A DNA stretch of 64,000 nucleotides from Alphaproteobacteria bacterium (lineage in GTDB: Bacteria; Pseudomonadota; Alphaproteobacteria; Bin95): assembly GCA_963665325.3 (NCBI GenBank), contig OZ224045.1, forward strand, positions 640,001-704,000. Reading direction: 5' to 3'. Under the pieces are notes generated by a model that saw only the letters and a program-made list of their open reading frames with translations, was not told the origin of the DNA and made no database searches. Numbering within the stretch: position 1 is the stretch's first letter; each line of letters begins with the position of its first letter. Position numbers and translations under genes: made by a program. Shown piece after piece: positions 14,946 through 45,069 of the stretch.

Positions 14946-15815
14946 ATGGCGGACGGGACTTTCGGCTTCATCGGCCTTGGCAATATGGGCGGGCCGATGG
15001 CCCGTCATGCCGCCGCGACCGGACGGGAGACGGTCGTGCACGACATCGCCGGCACTGCGGACCGGGCGCCCCCCGGAGCGATGGTCGCGCAGTCCAATGG
15101 CGAGGTCGCGCGCCGGGCCGGCATCGTCGCGCTTTCGCTGCCTACGGTCGCCTCCAATCGCGAGGTCGTGCTGGAAATTGCCGCAGCCGGACGCAAGGGG
15201 CAGATCGTGGTCGATACCTGCACTATCGGCCCGGCCGCCGCGCGCGAGAACGCTCGCATCCTGGCCCAAGCCGGCATCGCCTATCTCGACAGCCCCGTTT
15301 CAGGCATGAAATTCCGCGCCGAGGAGGGCACGCTGGCCAGCATGGCGTCCGGTTCACAGGAAGTCCTGGACCGTGCGCGGGAGATGGTCGGGGCATGGTC
15401 CCGGACGATCTTCCATGTCGGCCTCGAACCGGGGCTCGGCCAGACGATGAAGCTCGTCAACAACGCGCTCAACATTTCCACCCTCGTGACCTCCTCGGAA
15501 GCGGTGTCCTACGGCGAGCGCGCCGGACTCGACATCGCCACGATGCTGGAGGTCATCAATGCCAGCACGGGGCAGAATTTCACGACCCTGCATGCCTTCC
15601 CGAAGCATGTTGCGACGGGCGAATTCAGCGGGTCGGGTGCGGAGGCCCATGTCGTCAAGAAGGACCTCGGGCTGTTCGTCGAGGGCGCCGGGGCGGACGG
15701 CGCGCCCTGCCCAACGATCCTCCGCGCCTACGACACGGTTGCCGCCTTCGCGGACTCCGATCCGGGCCAGGACATGATCCGGATCTACCCCTTCGTGCGC
15801 GACGGGGCGTCCTAG
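14946..15815 (+). CDS. NAD(P)-dependent beta-hydroxyacid dehydrogenase (3-hydroxyisobutyrate dehydrogenase family)
   Basis: GFIGLGNMGGPMA, DSPVSG, MKLVNN, KDL. Confidence 0.92.
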   Translation: MADGTFGFIGLGNMGGPMARHAAATGRETVVHDIAGTADRAPPGAMVAQSNGEVARRAGIVALSLPTVASNREVVLEIAAAGRKGQIVVDTCTIGPAAARENARILAQAGIAYLDSPVSGMKFRAEEGTLASMASGSQEVLDRAREMVGAWSRTIFHVGLEPGLGQTMKLVNNALNISTLVTSSEAVSYGERAGLDIATMLEVINASTGQNFTTLHAFPKHVATGEFSGSGAEAHVVKKDLGLFVEGAGADGAPCPTILRAYDTVAAFADSDPGQDMIRIYPFVRDGAS

Positions 15816-15891
15816 CATGAACTTTTTTGTGGCGCGGACCGACCCCGTTCGCGGGTAAGGTCTGGCGTTCTCCCCTTCCGGCCGGTCCGTG

Positions 15892-17076
15892 ATGCTCAAC
15901 GATCCCGTCAAGCGCAATGTGCTGCTGCTTGCCGTCTGCCAGGCGCTCTACATATCCGCCACGACCCTGATGATCGTGACGGTGCCGCTGGTCGGCAAGA
16001 TGCTGGCGGACGATCCCGGGTGGGCGACCGCGCCGCTCTTCTTCCATCACGCCGGCGTCATGAGCGCCTCGATTCCGGCCTCGCTGCTGATGCGCCGGAT
16101 CGGGCGTCGTGCGGGCTTCATGCTCGGCACAGTGATCGGGTGCGTGGGGGCGCTGATCGCCGTCCAGGCAATTTACGACATGAGCTATTGGGGCTTCTGC
16201 CTCGGCGTGACCGTAGTCGGCTGGTTCAACGGATTCGCGATCTTCTACCGCTTTGCCGCTGCCGACATCGCAACGCCCGAGTTCCGGCCCAAGGCCATTT
16301 CCCTGGTGCTGGCCGGCGGACTGCTGGCGGCCATCATCGGCCCGGAACTGGCAAAGCACACGCTCGACTGGCTGGCGCCGGTCTTCTACGCCGGCAGCTA
16401 CCTCTCGCTGGTCGGGCTCTATCTCCTCTCCTTCTGCCTTCTCGCCTTTGTGAAAATTCCGAGGATGAGCGCGGAGGACCGGCGCGACACGGGCCGTCCC
16501 CTGCTCGAAATCCTGCGCCAGCCCGCCTGTATCGTCGCCATCCTGGCGTCGGCGGCCGCCTACTCCACCATGTCGCTGGTGATGAGCCCGACGCCGCTGG
16601 CGATGGAGGCCTGCGGCTTCGACACAGACGACACCTTCACCGTCATGCAGGCGCATGTCATCGGCATGTTCCTGCCCGCCTTCTTCACCGGCCATCTGGT
16701 GTCCCGTTTCGGGGCGCGGCCGATCATCCTGTCGGGCATTGCGATGATCGCCGTCTGCGCCGCCGTCAACCTGACCGGCATCACGCTCGCGCATTTCGCC
16801 GTGGCGCTCTTCCTGAACGGGGTCGGCTGGAACTTCATGTTCGTCGGCGGCTCCTCGCTGCTCACCGAAGTGCACACGCCCGCCGAGCGGGCCAAGGTGC
16901 AGGGAATCCACGATTTCACCGTCTTCGGCACGATCGCCGTCTCGGCGCTGTTCTCCGGCCGCATCCTGGAGGACCTCGGCTGGGACTGGATCAATATCGG
17001 CATCCTACCGATGATTGCCGTGGCGCTCATCGCCACCCTGATACTTGCCGGCTCCCGCCCCCAGCGGGCAGCCTGA
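15892..17076 (+). CDS. MFS transporter
   Basis: About 12 hydrophobic segments; RFAAAD, AISLVLAGG, HVIGMFLP, GVGWNFMFVGG. Confidence 0.9.
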   Translation: MLNDPVKRNVLLLAVCQALYISATTLMIVTVPLVGKMLADDPGWATAPLFFHHAGVMSASIPASLLMRRIGRRAGFMLGTVIGCVGALIAVQAIYDMSYWGFCLGVTVVGWFNGFAIFYRFAAADIATPEFRPKAISLVLAGGLLAAIIGPELAKHTLDWLAPVFYAGSYLSLVGLYLLSFCLLAFVKIPRMSAEDRRDTGRPLLEILRQPACIVAILASAAAYSTMSLVMSPTPLAMEACGFDTDDTFTVMQAHVIGMFLPAFFTGHLVSRFGARPIILSGIAMIAVCAAVNLTGITLAHFAVALFLNGVGWNFMFVGGSSLLTEVHTPAERAKVQGIHDFTVFGTIAVSALFSGRILEDLGWDWINIGILPMIAVALIATLILAGSRPQRAA

Positions 17077-17109
17077 CCCGAAGCACGACTGTCATCTTCG
17101 GCCTCTCTG

Positions 17110-17590
17110 GAACAAAAATCTATTATCTATGAAAAAATTCATATAATAGATTGACTCAAGAAGGCTGGGTCCTATATGTAGCGGACGGAAGCAGGCGGCA
17201 TCCGCGGAACCGCCTCGACCTCCGCGTCGGCGCCGACGCAAAAAACACCCTGAGGAGATGACAGGAGAAGTGCGCCTTGCGGCCGGCCCGCGCGCGGGCG
17301 CAATCAGGCGCGCGAACCGCGCCGGCACCAGCGGGCGCGGGCGCGCCCCCGCGATACGCGCGAAACAGGGTCCCGCCGCGCCAGACGAACCGGCGGCGGG
17401 GCGAACGGAACGGAGAGCGACCGGGAGGAACGACCGATGCCGAAGACGCCAAGCCGGAAAATCGGAAGCAATATCCGGAACGGCGGCAGCATGCCCGAGG
17501 AGACAACGGCATATGCGCCGTCCGTATGCGGAACATGACAGTCCATGACAATTCCGTAGGGCCGCATGACAAAACATGACATTCCCGGGG
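17110..17590 (+). repeat. Dispersed non-coding element, copy A (promoter-like head, conserved GC core, CATGACA array)
   Basis: Shares ordered blocks with the reverse complement of 44540-45035, including identical CGCGATACGCGCGAAACAGGGTCCCGCC (17350-17377) and GGGCCGCATGACAAAACATGACA. Confidence 0.85.
17117..17178 (+). promoter_or_regulatory. Sigma70-like promoter with overlapping AT-rich palindrome
   Basis: TTGACT (17151)-N16-TATATG; inverted repeat AATCTATTAT...ATAATAGATT (17117-17152). Confidence 0.55.
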
Positions 17591-17699
17591 GCATCCGCGC
17601 CGCGCGCCGTGCTCATGCGACAAATCGGGGCTTGAGGGACACCCGCCCTTCCCTTACACGCGCCGGCGGCGCTTCCATCCACTCGAGGGGAACCCTCCC

Positions 17700-19808
17700 A
17701 TGTCGCCCGTCCTGATTTTTGTCGTCGTCTGCGGCCTTGCCGCGCTGCTCTATGGCGTTGCCGCGTCGCGGTCCGTGCTCGCGGCGAGCCCCGGAAACGA
17801 GCGCATGCAGGAGATCGCGGCGGCAATCCAGGAAGGCGCGCGCGCCTATCTGAACCGGCAGTACCGGGCCATCGCCATCGTCGGCGTCGTCATCTTCGTC
17901 GTGCTGCTGCTGCTGCTCGGGGTTCACGAAGGCATCGGCTTCCTGATCGGCGCCATTCTCTCCGGCGCGGCCGGCTATATCGGCATGAACGTCTCGGTGA
18001 AGGCGAATGTCCGCACGGCGGAGGCGGCTCGGCAGGGACTGGCCCAGGGACTGGCCGTGTCATTCCGGTCCGGTGCGGTGACGGGAATGCTGGTCGCAGG
18101 CTTGGCACTGCTCGGCGTCGCCGTTTACTACACCGTCCTGGTCAATACCGGCGCCGAGGGACGCGGCCTGATCGACCCGCTCGTGGCGCTGGGCTTCGGC
18201 GCCTCTCTCATCTCCATCTTCGCGCGCCTCGGCGGCGGCATCTTCACCAAGGGCGCCGATGTCGGCGCGGACCTCGTGGGCAAGGTCGAGGCCGGCATTC
18301 CGGAGGACGACCCGCGCAACCCGGCCGTGATCGCGGACAATGTGGGCGACAATGTGGGCGACTGCGCGGGCATGGCCGCCGACCTGTTCGAGACCTATGC
18401 GGTCACCGTCGTCGCGACCATGGTGCTGGCGTCGATCTTCTTCGCCGCCGATCCTGCGCTTGCCGCAAAGGTGATGTCCTACCCGCTCGCCATTGGCGGC
18501 GTGTGCATTCTCGCCTCCATCGTCGGCACCTTCTTCGTCAAGCTCGGCGCCTCCCAGTCGATCATGGGCGCCCTCTACAGAGGCTTCATCGTGTCGGCAG
18601 TGATCTCGCTCGGGGGCATACTGGCGATGACCGCATGGACCGTGGGCATGGGCCCCATCGGCGAAAGCGGCTTCACGGGCACGCAATTGTTCATCTGTGG
18701 GGCCGTCGGCCTTGTCGTTACGGGGCTCCTCATCTGGGTGACGGAATACTACACCGGCACCGAATACCGCCCTGTCCGCTCTGTGGCCCAGGCCTCGACC
18801 ACCGGCCACGGCACCAATGTCATCCAGGGGCTCGCCGTCTCAATGGAAGCCTGCGCGCTGCCCGCCATCATCATCTGCGTCGCCATCATCGCCTGCCACC
18901 AGCTTGCGGGCCTGTTCGGCATCGCCATCGCCGTTACGGCCATGCTGGCGCTCGCGGGCATGGTGGTGGCGCTGGACGCCTACGGCCCCGTCACGGACAA
19001 TGCCGGCGGCATCGCCGAGATGGCGGAGCTGGAGGAGGATGTCCGCGAAACCACCGACAAGCTGGATGCTGTCGGTAACACCACCAAGGCCGTCACCAAG
19101 GGCTATGCCATCGGCTCGGCGGGTCTCGGCGCGCTGGTGCTGTTCGCGGCCTATACGGAAGACATCAAGTTCTTCAGCGCGGCCGGAGACCAATATCCGT
19201 TTTTCGACGGCATCGCAGAACAGGTAACCTTCTCGCTGTCCGACCCCTATGTGGTCATCGGCCTGTTCGTGGGCGGCTTGCTGCCCTTCCTGTTCGGGGC
19301 GATGGGCATGATGGCCGTGGGTCGCGCGGGCGGCGCCGTCGTGGAGGAGGTGCGCCGCCAGTTCCGGGAGATCCCCGGTATCATGGAAGGCACTGCCAAG
19401 CCGGAATACGGCCCCTGCGTGGACATGCTCACGCGCGCGGCGATCAAGGAAATGATCGTGCCGTCGATGCTGCCGGTGCTCTCGCCGATCGCGCTCTTCC
19501 TGCTGATCTGGCTGGTCGCCGGCAAGGCGGCGGCACTGACCTCGGTCGGCGCCATGCTGCTCGGCGTCATCGTCACCGGCATCTTCGTCGCCATCTCTAT
19601 GACCGCCGGCGGCGGCGCTTGGGATAACGCCAAGAAATACATCGAGGATGGCCATCACGGCGGCAAGGGCTCGGAAGCCCACAAGGCCGCCGTGACGGGC
19701 GACACGGTCGGCGACCCCTACAAGGACACCGCCGGTCCCGCCGTCAACCCGATGATCAAGATCACCAACATCGTGGCGCTCCTGTTGCTCGCCGTGCTCG
19801 CGCATTGA
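17700..19808 (+). CDS. hppA: Membrane-integral pyrophosphatase, K+-independent H+-pumping type
   Basis: [40 protein letters not shown] (Lys variant), [14 protein letters not shown]. Confidence 0.96.
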
Positions 19809-19887
19809 CGGGCCGGTCCGGCAGGCCGTGACCGTGGGGAGGAATCCCGGCTAAGCTGGCGGGCGTTCCCCGACGGACCCGTCTTCC

Positions 19888-21441
19888 ATGCAGGCCGATA
19901 CGGTCGATGACCTTTTTCGCCGTTTCGGCCCGAACTACCGCTGGTATGTAACCTTTGCCGGCCTGATCGGCGGCTTTTCGATGGTGCTGTCGGCCACCAT
20001 CGTCAATGTGGCCGTGCCGGAGGTCATGGGCGCGTTCGGCGTCGGGCAGGACCAGGCGCAATGGATGGCGACCGCCTTCCTCGCTACGATGACCGCCAGC
20101 CAGCTGCTCAACGCCTGGATCACCGAGGCATTCGGGCAGAGGCTCGGCTTCGCGCTGACGCTCGCGGTCTTCATGGCCGGGGCCCTGATGAGCGCCACGG
20201 CCACTTCGATGGACATGCTCATCCTCGGCCGCATCCTGCAGGGCGTGGCGGCGGGCATCGTCATGCCGATGACGATGGTGACCATCTTCACCGTCTTTCC
20301 GCCGGAACGCCGGGGCATGGCGATGGGCGTTTACGGCGCCGGCGTGGTGCTGGCGCCAGCGCTCGGGCCAGCGGTCGGGGGGATCGCCATCGACACGCTG
20401 TCCTGGCGCGCCATGTTCCTGCTGCCGCTGCCCTTCTGCGGCCTGGCGCTTCTCGCCGGCATGGTGTTCATGCCGTCCAAGGGGCGCATCGGCAGGCTGC
20501 CGCCCTTCGACTGGTTCGGCTTCGTCTTCCTGGGAGCGGCGCTCTTCCTGTTGATGACGGCCGCGGCATCGGGGCCGAGGGAAGGTTGGCTCTCCGATCA
20601 TATCCTGCTCTACGCCGTGCTGGGCACGGTCTCGGCGGCCATGTTCGTGATTATCCAGGTGAAGAGCCGGGCGCCGCTTCTGGATGTGACGCTCTTCCGC
20701 AACCGCACCTTCACGGCGGCGGTGATCGTCGCTTTCGTGTTCGGTGTCGGCAACTTCGCCTCCGGCTATGTCATTCCCGTATTCGTCCAGCAGGTTCAGA
20801 GCTTCACGGCGACCAAGGCCGGGCTGCTGCTGATGCCCGCCGGTCTGCTGCTGGTCTTCGCACTACCGCTCACCGGACGCGCCGCCGACCGTTTGCCCGA
20901 CCATATCCCGATCCTGGCCGGCCTCGGCTTCTTTGCGTTCGGCACCTTCCTGATGGCGACGGCCGACGCCAATACCGGTTTCTGGGCCTTCGCCGTCTTC
21001 ACGATGATCAGCCGGGTGGGCATGTCCTTCATCATGCCGGCGCTGTCCGCATCCGCCCTTCGCGCGCTCCCGAACGAAAAGCTGGCCCAGGGATCGGGCG
21101 CGATGAACTTCATCCGCCAACTCGGCGGGGCGTCCGGCACCAACCTGATCGTGGTCTGGCTGCAATTACGGACGCACTGGCATGCGGAATCGCTAGCCTC
21201 CACCCAGACAGCGGCGAACACGGCAAGCCGGGGATTCCTCGAGATCGTGGCGGACCGCCTCGGCATCGCCGGCCTGCCGGACCCGGCCCGGCTCGGCGCG
21301 GCGCTCGACTATCTGAGCCAGGTCGTCCACGCCCAGGCACTCGCCTTCGGCTTCCGGGACTGCTTCCTGGCGCTCGGCGCCGTCTTTGTGCTGGCGATGC
21401 TGCCGGCGCTCAATCTGGCGCGCGTCCCCCGCAGGGAGTAG
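19888..21441 (+). CDS. DHA2 family (EmrB/QacA) MFS efflux permease
   Basis: ATIVNVAVP, GRILQG, APALGPAVGG, RQLGG; about 14 TM segments. Confidence 0.9.
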   Translation: MQADTVDDLFRRFGPNYRWYVTFAGLIGGFSMVLSATIVNVAVPEVMGAFGVGQDQAQWMATAFLATMTASQLLNAWITEAFGQRLGFALTLAVFMAGALMSATATSMDMLILGRILQGVAAGIVMPMTMVTIFTVFPPERRGMAMGVYGAGVVLAPALGPAVGGIAIDTLSWRAMFLLPLPFCGLALLAGMVFMPSKGRIGRLPPFDWFGFVFLGAALFLLMTAAASGPREGWLSDHILLYAVLGTVSAAMFVIIQVKSRAPLLDVTLFRNRTFTAAVIVAFVFGVGNFASGYVIPVFVQQVQSFTATKAGLLLMPAGLLLVFALPLTGRAADRLPDHIPILAGLGFFAFGTFLMATADANTGFWAFAVFTMISRVGMSFIMPALSASALRALPNEKLAQGSGAMNFIRQLGGASGTNLIVVWLQLRTHWHAESLASTQTAANTASRGFLEIVADRLGIAGLPDPARLGAALDYLSQVVHAQALAFGFRDCFLALGAVFVLAMLPALNLARVPRRE

Positions 21442-21453
21442 GCTTCAGGCCGT

Positions 21454-21540
21454 GGCCGCTTGCTGGAATTGGTAGACAGACCGGACTTAAAATCCGATGG
21501 GAGAATTCCCGTGAGGGTTCGAGTCCCTCAGCGGCCACCA
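21454..21540 (+). tRNA. tRNA-Leu (TAA)
   Basis: Acceptor GGCCGCT/AGCGGCC-A-CCA, D-loop GGAATTGGTAGAC, anticodon loop CTTAAAA, long variable arm, GGTTCGAGTCC. Confidence 0.95.
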
Positions 21541-21571
21541 ACATAATCAGCTAGAATGGGGGCAGAGAATG

Positions 21572-21594
21572 GGTGGCCTTCAGGGCCGCCTTTT
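21572..21594 (+). terminator. Intrinsic terminator downstream of tRNA-Leu
   Basis: GGTGGCC-TTCAG-GGCCGCC hairpin followed by TTTT. Confidence 0.6.
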
Positions 21595-21678
21595 CGCTTC
21601 CGTGATTCCGTGGGGCCAAGGAACCGGAGAGCTATGCCGGAACCGGGTAAGAAACATGTACCCTGTACAGGTCAGCCC

Positions 21679-21712
21679 CGTGACCACGCATGACAAAACA
21701 CGACATTTCCGG
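21679..21712 (+). repeat. Isolated CATGACA heptamer array (partial copy C of the dispersed element)
   Basis: CGTGACC-acg-CATGACA-aaa-CACGACA-TTTCCGG, matching CATGACAAAACATGACATTTCCGG of copy B. Confidence 0.7.
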
Positions 21713-44459: not shown

Positions 44460-44539
44460 TTCGTCCCCCCGTCCCGCCGCTGGCAGCACCCCTTGCCGAA
44501 GGCGGCGGATAGGTCCCCGCGCCATACGTCCCACATGGA

Positions 44540-45035
44540 GTGTCATGAAGTGTCATGTTTTGTCATGCGGCCCGCCGGAAATGTCATGTTTTGTCATGGT
44601 CCGCCGCGCCTCCGGTCCCGTTGCTGCCCGTCCGTATCCCGCATGCGGTTCCTCCATCGCGTTTCGTTCCAGTCCGTTCCCGCCGCCCGCGCCGAACGCG
44701 GCGAACATTGCGGATGGCGGCGTTGACGCCGCCGGCAGATGACGGCGTTGACGCCGCCGCCGGCTCGCCCGCCTGGCGGGACCCTGTTTCGCGCGTATCG
44801 CGTCCGCCCGCGCCCGCCCGTCAGCGCGCGTTAGCGCCGGCGCGGCTCGCGCGCCTGATTGCGCGCGCGGGACGGAGGGCGCACTTCGCCTGTGCGTCGA
44901 ATCGGGGTCGTTCTGCGCCGGGCCGGCGCGAAGGGAAGCGATCCGCGCGGACGCCGCTCCCTCGGACCCATCTTAGCATAATTTCCTGAGGGTCAAGCTC
45001 GTTTTAGAATTATTTCAAATTTAATTGGAACAAAC
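44540..45035 (-). repeat. Dispersed non-coding element, copy B
   Basis: TGTCATG at 44541, 44551, 44561, 44582 and 44592; GGCGGGACCCTGTTTCGCGCGTATCGCG (44775-44802) identical to copy A; AT-rich head with TTGACC on the minus strand. Confidence 0.85.
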
Positions 45036-45069
45036 CGCTTCTTTCGGACTGCCGCGAGGCCGGAGCGCT

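Follow-up and report, generated by a model that had tools for sequence, protein, structure and literature searches.

Several described systems come close to the element reported here. The CREE/NEMIS elements of Neisseria are dispersed repeats, present in about 100 or more copies, that can supply promoters to neighbouring genes and are co-transcribed with them (PMC2649163). Highly similar promoter regions found before non-homologous genes in one genome, a pattern called promoter reuse, suggest that promoters move apart from genes (PMC3575422), and the Beggiatoaceae carry many intergenic sets of the 7-nt direct repeat TAACTGA, which contain stop codons, lie upstream of genes and have been proposed to be regulatory (PMC4679880). 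Small terminases recognise pac DNA via a ring of helix-turn-helix (HTH) motifs (PMC4737164); for all four articles the statements made here and below refer to excerpts. Here we describe a family of intergenic cassettes, two copies and one mini copy of which lie in a stretch of 64,000 nt (positions 640,001 to 704,000 of contig OZ224045.1, assembly GCA_963665325.3; the window) from an alphaproteobacterium of the lineage Bin95. Among the genomes compared the window is G000:C1:640001-704000, and the source genome, G000, comprises 5.58 Mb in five contigs at 67% G+C. On balance, we favour the reading that these are selfish, non-autonomous promoter/leader cassettes that read into the downstream gene, hppA and ssb in the case of the two window copies.

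Copy A (~17100–17600, forward strand) and copy B (~44520–45045, reverse strand) align over ~520 nt with a mean column identity of 76%, several indels and the same motifs in the same order. An earlier note, made from the window sequence alone, had described this shared architecture; both of its regions are real, but the units proved slightly larger than it had drawn them. The identical 28-mer that it pointed out occurs exactly twice in the window (17350–17377, forward, and 44775–44802, reverse), with none expected from 100 shuffles. The pattern CATGACA-N3-CATGACA, with at most one mismatch, was observed six times in the window versus 0.04 expected, with two pairs in copy A, three in copy B and one at 21689 in the mini copy. 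An 8-nt indel that separates ACAGGAGAAGTGCGCC from the GCGCAATCAGG block differently in the two copies puts A and B in different reading frames, and thus the core is conserved at the nucleotide level, as had been proposed. A coding role for the core was ruled out, as the indels between motifs are not multiples of three.

A profile built from A and B and run with nhmmer identified 70 family loci on four of the five contigs of the source genome, and members of the family span 170–1360 bp. Of the 16 other species in the genus, 13 have the element, each with at least 19 matches; other genera of the family and class gave only three marginal matches (E ~1e-4). The exact core 26-mer was found in at least 91 loci of metagenome-assembled genomes (MAGs) from uncultured Alphaproteobacteria/Rhodospirillales and on one Bryobacterales-labelled contig; it had no occurrence in viral contigs, and a blastn search of a plasmid collection, which may lack records of this genome, gave no match. 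The family is confined to a single genus of uncultured sponge-type bacteria, with no convincing occurrence beyond it. The Bryobacterales MAG contig (Acidobacteriota; L051) holds three cassette cores within 1.4 kb and could be mis-binned or represent a transfer. Against Rfam, the whole window returned only three tRNAs at the gathering score, and copy A and one long copy searched at E ≤ 10 gave only chance-level matches of 11–15 bits, compared with cut-offs of 97–153. The element cannot, as had been stated, be assigned to a known RNA class; nor was there a match to the end of an insertion sequence (IS), and the number of copies greatly exceeds two. Searches of open-access full text on mobile promoters, CATGACA repeats, Correia elements and small terminase/pac gave no description of the family, the papers listed for CATGACA all being without the heptamer.

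The cassettes show a strong orientation bias. Between tandem genes, 36 are co-directional with the genes and three are opposite, and 51 of 66 loci aim at a co-oriented downstream gene while 12 face a convergent one (counts made with a crude GC3 gene caller, four loci without two called neighbours being dropped). A replication-strand bias was rejected: 34 of 70 copies in the source genome match the local GC skew in sign, and this skew is itself weak. An apparent run of forward-strand arrays in G016 is a truncation artefact, since reverse-strand copies lie in the same interval. Among 18 sampled downstream genes the 13 with Pfam matches have functions that are all unrelated; downstream genes of the family include hppA, ssb, an amidase, alanine racemase, a MetE-like gene, kinases, binding proteins and a transposase, and a search for a functional theme found none. 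This variety already contradicts the idea that the element is a cis-regulatory leader, such as a riboswitch or attenuator, inherited vertically before the functionally related genes of a regulon. The co-orientation of most copies with the downstream gene would suit such a leader, as would the short open reading frame (ORF) with a Shine-Dalgarno site that precedes this gene in the manner of a leader peptide. But it would not account for the 12 loci that face a convergent gene, for sites that are filled in one species and empty in another, or for the five copies that carry a 326-aa gene of their own, and we regard it as very improbable.

Comparison between species revealed both filled and empty sites. 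The site between an MFS transporter gene and hppA (H+-pyrophosphatase), where copy A aims at hppA, is filled in G000, G005, G007, G002 and G011, can be seen in part, at the ends of contigs, in G010 and G006, and is empty in G016, G008 and G003, in which the MFS stop lies directly beside an hppA upstream block. This block, GCTCATGCGACAAATCGGGGCTTGAG-N-CTTACACGCGCCGGCGGCGC (17613–17699 in the window; orthologues L125–L138), is conserved in 15 of 15 species, to a degree far above that of ordinary intergenic sequence, and probably represents the promoter and leader native to hppA; in G000 the cassette lies between the MFS gene stop and the block. One site that holds a long copy is empty (~33 bp) in G011 and G008, and two further sites, with flanks 88–93% identical, are cut down in G011 or G012 to a remnant of 75–129 bp that consists of the promoter and the 5′ hairpin P1, with or without heptamers. 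Between species, cassettes that occupy one locus, the hppA site included, resemble each other no more than paralogues do. Turnover or conversion is therefore fast relative to the flanks, and orthology of the copies at the hppA site was ruled out on the same ground. Taken with the 70 loci, the gene-carrying long copies and the deletion derivatives, the filled, reduced and empty sites support the suggestion in the earlier note of a non-autonomous mobile or regulatory cassette.

The features of the window copies and their neighbours are as follows.

17100–17180, forward: AT-rich head of copy A, promoter-like and directed rightward, with TTGACT at 17151–17156 and CTATAT at 17172–17177
17181–17225, forward: 5′ hairpin P1 of copy A (GGAAGCAGGCGGC, loop AUCCGCGG, GCCGCCUC), just past the predicted transcription start; covariance-model match of 35.7 bits
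17224–17412, forward: conserved GC-rich leader core of copy A, with the palindrome GCGTCGGCGCCGACGC and an A-run
17261–17276, forward: ACAGGAGAAGTGCGCC in the core
17298–17326, forward: near-invariant GCGCAATCAGGCGCGCGAACCGCGCCGGC in the core
17350–17377, forward: 28-mer with a CGCG-AUA-CGCG hairpin
17372–17400, forward: hairpin CCCGCCGC...GCGGCGGG
17423–17429, forward: Shine-Dalgarno site GGGAGGA
17437–17538, forward: 33-codon ORF (MPKTPSRK...), its TGA inside the first heptamer
17534–17581, forward: heptamer tail, CATGACA at 17534, 17544, 17565 and 17575, in 10-bp phase with one 21-bp step
17582–17612, forward: 3′ end of copy A, a short GC hairpin of the TTCCCGGGGGCATCC type without a T-run terminator
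17613–19808, forward: hppA upstream block GCTCATGCGACAAATCGGGGCTTGAGGG...CTTACAC and hppA (17700–19808; PF03030, 889 bits)
21545–21712, forward: mini copy after tRNA-Leu (21454–21540), with −10 box GCTAGAAT, P1-type hairpin GGGTGGCCTTCAGGGCCGCCTTTTC, GGAGAGCTATG and CATGACAAAACACGACA, without the core
44358–43879, reverse: ssb, at which copy B aims, followed by gyrA
44520–45045, reverse: copy B, with TTTGTTC at 45034–45028, TTGACC at 44996–44991 and TG-n-TAAGAT at 44978–44970
~44963–44931, reverse: P1 of copy B
44864–44834, reverse: core 31-mer of copy B
44710–44759, reverse: 25-nt direct repeat of copy B
44644–44594, reverse: 16-codon ORF of copy B with a Shine-Dalgarno site, MRDTDGQQRDRRRGGP
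44598–44541, reverse: five heptamers of copy B

Copy B sits between a luciferase-like monooxygenase gene and ssb-gyrA, and its head is almost identical to that of the long, ORF-bearing copies. The mini copy of the window escaped the nhmmer profiles, including a 44-nt P1 profile that recovered 62 known loci and a few mini forms from the genome. Other mini forms lie at G000 C1:2517045 and C3:66362 and, in G011, at a site orthologous to that of a cassette; mini forms retain only the −10 box, P1, the Shine-Dalgarno site with its ATG, and the heptamers.

The anatomy of the family was derived from 65–108 aligned copies. The 5′ edge is marked by (T)TTGTTC, with the TTGTTC box present at the 5′ end of most copies, and by an AT-rich GAAATAATTCC box. 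In 65 anchored copies a promoter-like head module could be aligned; 35 of these heads match TTGAC (at most one mismatch)-N14-19-TAnnnT, 31 of them with N15, and 30 of the 35 have a TG before the −10 box (extended −10), while the others, copy A included, have CTATAT or CAATAT at −10. P1 follows, and after it come a second variable hairpin and an A-run. The core then consists, in order, of ACGGGAGAnGTGCGCC, the almost invariant GCGCAATCAGGCGCGCGAACCGCGCCGGCGC, a GGCGCC hairpin, CGCGATACGCGCGAAACAGGG and a further hairpin, and most of the 70 loci carry the 18-mer GCGCAATCAGGCGCGCGA without a mismatch. Behind the core are a purine-rich GGAACGGAACG stretch, a strong Shine-Dalgarno site and an ATG. 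The variable spacer holds, in some copies, two to four tandem units of ~25–45 nt (GGCGGCGTCAACGCCGCCATCTGCAATGTTCGCCGCGTTCGGCGC), each a GC hairpin (copy B 44710–44759; G000 C3:1198726, C4:746256, C4:243111 and C3:373941). The GGCGGCGTCAACGCCGCCATCTGCAATGTTCGCCGCGTTCGGCGC unit was also found outside cassettes, as extra BLAST matches to query positions 337–396.

P1 is the hairpin that shows covariation. Its cells are paired in 74.5% of cases across the family, compared with 42–59% for slid partners; it has a covariation score of 0.255 versus 0.20 in shuffles, with none of 500 shuffles reaching it, and double changes occur in 9 of 11 pairs, values that lean towards structure as the alignment was fitted to the model. 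In the hairpin past the 28-mer the arms vary between copies yet stay complementary, as judged by eye. RNAalifold applied to 85 cores gave −13 kcal/mol with no compensatory pairs, and the folding z-scores of 10 leaders (+0.56 to −2.2) were no better than those of shuffles. Except for P1, an RNA fold is without statistical support.

These data bear on whether the loci are a multicopy gene family of a trans-acting structured small RNA (sRNA) of ~250–400 nt, transcribed from the promoter head, with the core as its functional fold and CAUGACA binding a protein or target. Such a family, which would be new as there is no Rfam match, is consistent with the promoter-like head in front of every copy, the covariation of P1 and the pairing kept in the hairpins after the 28-mer, the almost invariant 31-nt stretch and a core-bearing contig in an RNA library. 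It is hard to square with the lack of compensatory pairs in the 85 cores and the insignificant leader z-scores, with the absence of a terminator, with the strong Shine-Dalgarno sites and ORFs inside the unit and with the long forms that encode a conserved protein. In addition, mini forms that lack the entire core keep promoter, P1 and heptamers, and a 36:3 co-orientation would be unexpected for independent sRNA genes. We therefore consider this explanation improbable. The structured noncoding RNA family that had been put forward as one option is weakly supported, by P1, and the description of the element as non-coding applies to the core but not to the part behind it, where a Shine-Dalgarno site and a short ORF ending in the first heptamer are found. 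RNA contigs of four runs, compared with 15000–21000, comprised scattered short contigs on the flanking genes and none over copy A, a contig-level result that shows nothing either way. Transcription of the cassette is thus proposed from its sequence and from the orientation bias.

The heptamer-bearing copies have a short ORF behind the Shine-Dalgarno site, the stop of which is the TGA of a heptamer. In some copies this is a 41-codon ORF (MPKTRSRGNRTEYPEP...HDKT*), with ~100 matching places in 12 of the 16 other species and with the 33-codon ORF of copy A as a relative. Its codon-position entropy is 1.15/1.24/1.36, and amino-acid constraint on it is therefore weak at best. Some copies carry a second ORF of 154–187 aa (MTATDPRP...) without a Pfam match, and the remaining copies are deletion remnants. 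Five long copies of ~1.35 kb hold an ORF of 326 aa (ORF327) where the short ORF would be. Their similarity of 92–95% is limited to the stretch between the head and the third heptamer, and they lie in five unrelated contexts with unrelated housekeeping genes as neighbours.

Residues 11–80 of ORF327 match Terminase_2 (PF03592; 47.2 bits, cut-off 26.1), covering only positions 2–71 of the 141 of the profile, and the protein also matches PHROG 51 (1.7e-13). The AlphaFold model has a pLDDT of ~90 for residues 12–66, the remainder being helices and disorder with a basic tail. The top Foldseek matches are to the DNA-binding domain of SF6/SPP1 small terminases (TM 0.85 over 56 residues, 41% identity, E 0.04), with PDB 4zc3 and 2cmp first and 3zqq also present. 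At least 331 homologues share 65–92% identity and many invariant columns, and the C-terminus, ..HD(K/I/R)(T/S)*, is always encoded by the heptamer. The gene, a chromosomal repeat of 5–17 copies, is multi-copy in 12 of the 16 other species, alongside many deletion derivatives in the form of N-only and C-only fragments. No copy of it was detected in the three element-free species or in G009, where the element is present. ORF327 gave no catalytic-domain match, and the source genome had no match to the large terminase ATPase PF03354 or the HK97 capsid PF05065, whereas controls matched. By domain, ORF327 thus belongs to the small-terminase HTH family; by context it is not a terminase, and it is not the recombinase or Rep gene that the earlier note had envisaged for long copies.

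The 3′ part of the cassettes is an array of two to five CATGACA units with a spacing of 10 nt. Genome-wide, 119 same-strand neighbouring pairs have this spacing, compared with no more than 11 for each other spacing up to 40; the units never occur at a 7-nt spacing, and 73 of 103 phased clusters lie in or adjoin family loci. The pairs track the family across species, with 319 in G016, 23 in G009 and 1, 0 and 0 in the three element-free species, and reversed-pattern controls gave none. Past the last heptamer the consensus is CTTCGCnGGGGGTCCCG, and a terminator scan of copies A and B found no terminator-like sites. As the array places UGA stops in all three frames, the heptamers would certainly halt translation in each of them. 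In the 70 nt before the 5′ ends of elements (71 flanks), ATGAC occurs 22 times in direct and, as GTCAT, three times in inverted orientation, the latter being about chance (~2.5 expected by our own base-composition estimate), and the upstream occurrences include complete arrays that abut the next head. This enrichment of direct ATGAC suggests that arrays may be junction or insertion sites. The possibility that heptamer ATGs serve as fused starts of downstream genes was rejected, as the frame is open in ~7 of 18 sampled loci, near the rough expectation.

The scan for phased heptamers also caught a 12-copy insertion sequence of G000 (for example C1:1487054, C1:2165788 and C4:29386), in which the start of an IstB-like gene has two CATGAC 10 nt apart; it is unrelated to the cassette. 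A separate small palindromic repeat, CGTCATGCCCGGA-N-TCCGGGCATGACG, contains CATGAC and recurs beside several cassettes (for example G000 regions C1:289300 and C3:374600; upstream of hppA in G002 and G005, L130 and L125).

Two different copies are interrupted, exactly within the CGCGATAC hairpin, by a ~40-kb integrative conjugative element that encodes a tyrosine integrase of the P4 type (Arm-domain) and has the 11-bp direct repeat ACACGCGATAC on either side. One island lies at G000 C1:777100–817140, outside the window, and the other across C4:1–14300 and C3:1325278–1325377; they are 99.99% identical over 14.3 kb. Since the second island spans two contig ends, C3 and C4 may be joined there.

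The array raises the alternative that the element acts at the DNA level, with the heptamers and perhaps the core as binding or recombination sites (pac-like sites, attachment sites or OmpR/PhoB-type operators) and the promoter and ORFs secondary. The spacing of exactly 10 bp corresponds to one helical turn, the protein of the long copies has a small-terminase HTH of the SF6/SPP1 type and its stop codon lies in the array, direct ATGAC is enriched in the 5′ flanks over inverted (22 vs 3) and the conjugative element has chosen the hairpin of two copies, all of which would fit such a role. But with neither PF03354 nor PF05065 the source genome has no resident packaging machine, G009 keeps its arrays with ORF327 not detected, and a function as site only leaves the conserved promoter, Shine-Dalgarno site and ORFs unaccounted for. 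The TGTCAT repeats, moreover, have a 10-bp period, unlike the Pho box, the period of which is 11 bp. As a full account of the element we think this unlikely, with a modest chance of being correct. Helical phasing, overlap with the end of the HTH gene and enrichment at 5′ junctions nevertheless suggest that the heptamers are also a putative protein-binding or recombination/junction site, and as candidate sites they may be bound by the HTH protein of the cassette and serve for junction or insertion.

Returning to the selfish promoter/leader cassette, we note several results that weigh against it. Regarding mobility, terminal inverted repeats were not found family-wide, as the earlier note had observed for the window; copy A alone has a 16-nt, 88% complementary pair (left edge, 17087–17102, with the first heptamer, 17528–17543), and none was found at the ends of copy B. 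No target duplication is visible in the comparison of filled and empty hppA sites, other loci being complex or carrying remnants. The cassettes, long copies included, encode no transposase, in line with the earlier note, and no recombinase or Rep. Moreover, the source genome, which is 100% complete, had no match to the Y1 transposase PF01797 (control matched in 6 of 14 genomes). The Y2 transposase PF04986 likewise had no match, but its control matched nowhere. No two short copies are nearly identical (median identity to the best paralogue 80.5%, maximum 95.4%), and hence there is no sign of very recent movement. Because neither family-wide inverted repeats nor target duplications were seen, mobility is a matter of inference, and we infer that the cassette is or was mobile.

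With respect to the promoter and leader role, the TTGAC head that the earlier note had called a promoter recurs throughout the family, but a strict sigma-70 scan of copies A and B called no promoter, as the distance from TTGAC to the −10-like box is 15 rather than 16–18 nt. The cassette is not needed for the expression of hppA, because hppA keeps its own conserved promoter block. A near-invariant 31-nt core among copies that are ~75% identical goes beyond what a promoter/leader role accounts for, and the heptamer arrays appear independent of ORF327, because G009 has both the element and 23 heptamer pairs with ORF327 not detected. Finally, the sole RNA trace of the family is one 152-nt contig with a paralogous core from a polyA RNA library, which could be DNA carry-over.

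Under the favoured reading, each cassette would be a small transcription unit composed of the promoter-like head, P1, a leader of ~200 nt, a ribosome-binding site with its ORF, the heptamers and a GC hairpin without a terminator. The head would be an active promoter with transcripts that read through, into hppA for copy A and into ssb-gyrA for copy B. Because a promoter is carried and a terminator is absent, the cassette may act as a portable promoter and leader for the downstream gene, with the heptamer array as a three-frame stop barrier and probably as a site for protein binding or junctions. The long form would be the one-gene unit and the short and mini forms its deletion products, the cassette having multiplied in intergenic DNA and decaying since then through internal deletion. 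Antisense copies would have been purged, leaving as survivors those that point as their neighbours do. A bolder version, to which we attach a small chance, is that of a new kind of selfish element, a 1.35-kb cassette whose sole protein, an HTH DNA binder of the small-terminase type, recognises its own phased, pac-like CATGACA array over its stop codon and which, without a transposase of its own, spreads to such arrays and leaves them behind, seeding ~100 promoter-plus-array modules per genome. If this were true, unrelated host genes would be wired to one DNA-binding protein, or the DNA packaging of incoming phages would be redirected.

If the promoter/leader reading holds, ~1% of intergenic sites across a genus of sponge-type symbionts carry one portable promoter/leader module, which would be a clear natural case of repeat-driven promoter spread in which the protein of the candidate "master" copy derives from phage packaging and not from transposition. 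The family offers a predicted transcription start, an operator-like array with 10-bp phase, a 326-aa HTH protein and a 28-nt hairpin into which a conjugative element integrates. It also accounts for dozens of "terminase small subunit" annotations that lie outside prophages and for many spurious small ORFs annotated in these MAGs, and such repeats may break short-read assemblies.

Among known systems, CREE are 100–155 bp long and have 26-bp terminal inverted repeats, a TA duplication and no ORF. The present family resembles them, as far as the excerpts of that article describe, in being intergenic, non-autonomous, polymorphic between related genomes and restricted to one genus (PMC2649163). Unlike CREE, its members span 170–1360 bp, have no family-wide inverted repeats or duplication, and combine a promoter at one end, reading inward and then outward, with a ribosome-binding site and ORF, a phased tail and protein-coding long copies. 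Reused promoters, in the corresponding excerpts, are defined by upstream similarity alone, whereas here the promoter is one module of a cassette with leader, ORF, tail and a gene-bearing long form (PMC3575422). Many short and few long copies, decay by internal deletion and hairpins near the ends are shared with miniature inverted-repeat transposable elements (MITEs), REP/REPIN and IS200/IS605-derived elements. Unlike in MITEs, the long form, which has the same ends as the short copies, encodes no transposase, there are no shared terminal inverted repeats and the orientation relative to genes is strongly biased; in contrast to REP/REPIN and the IS200/IS605 derivatives, the source genome is without a Y1 transposase/RAYT. 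The rolling-circle elements IS91/ISCR use a Y2 transposase and have ori and ter ends next to GTTC.

The N-terminal HTH of ORF327 resembles small terminases (TerS) of the SPP1/SF6 type in both sequence and fold. The pac sites of P22 and SaPI lie in or beside the terS gene, and in the cassette the ORF327 gene runs at its 3′ end into a repeated motif with helical phasing. Unlike in TerS, the remainder of ORF327 is a different helical and disordered region with a basic tail, no large terminase (TerL) or capsid gene was found and the gene does not lie in a prophage. The TAACTGA repeats, as the abstract describes them, are sets of direct heptamers to which no promoter, leader or ORF is attached (PMC4679880). 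In contrast to these, and to head-to-tail 7-nt repeats in general, the CATGACA units have 3-nt spacers between them, which gives a 10-bp period, and they make up the 3′ module of a larger cassette.

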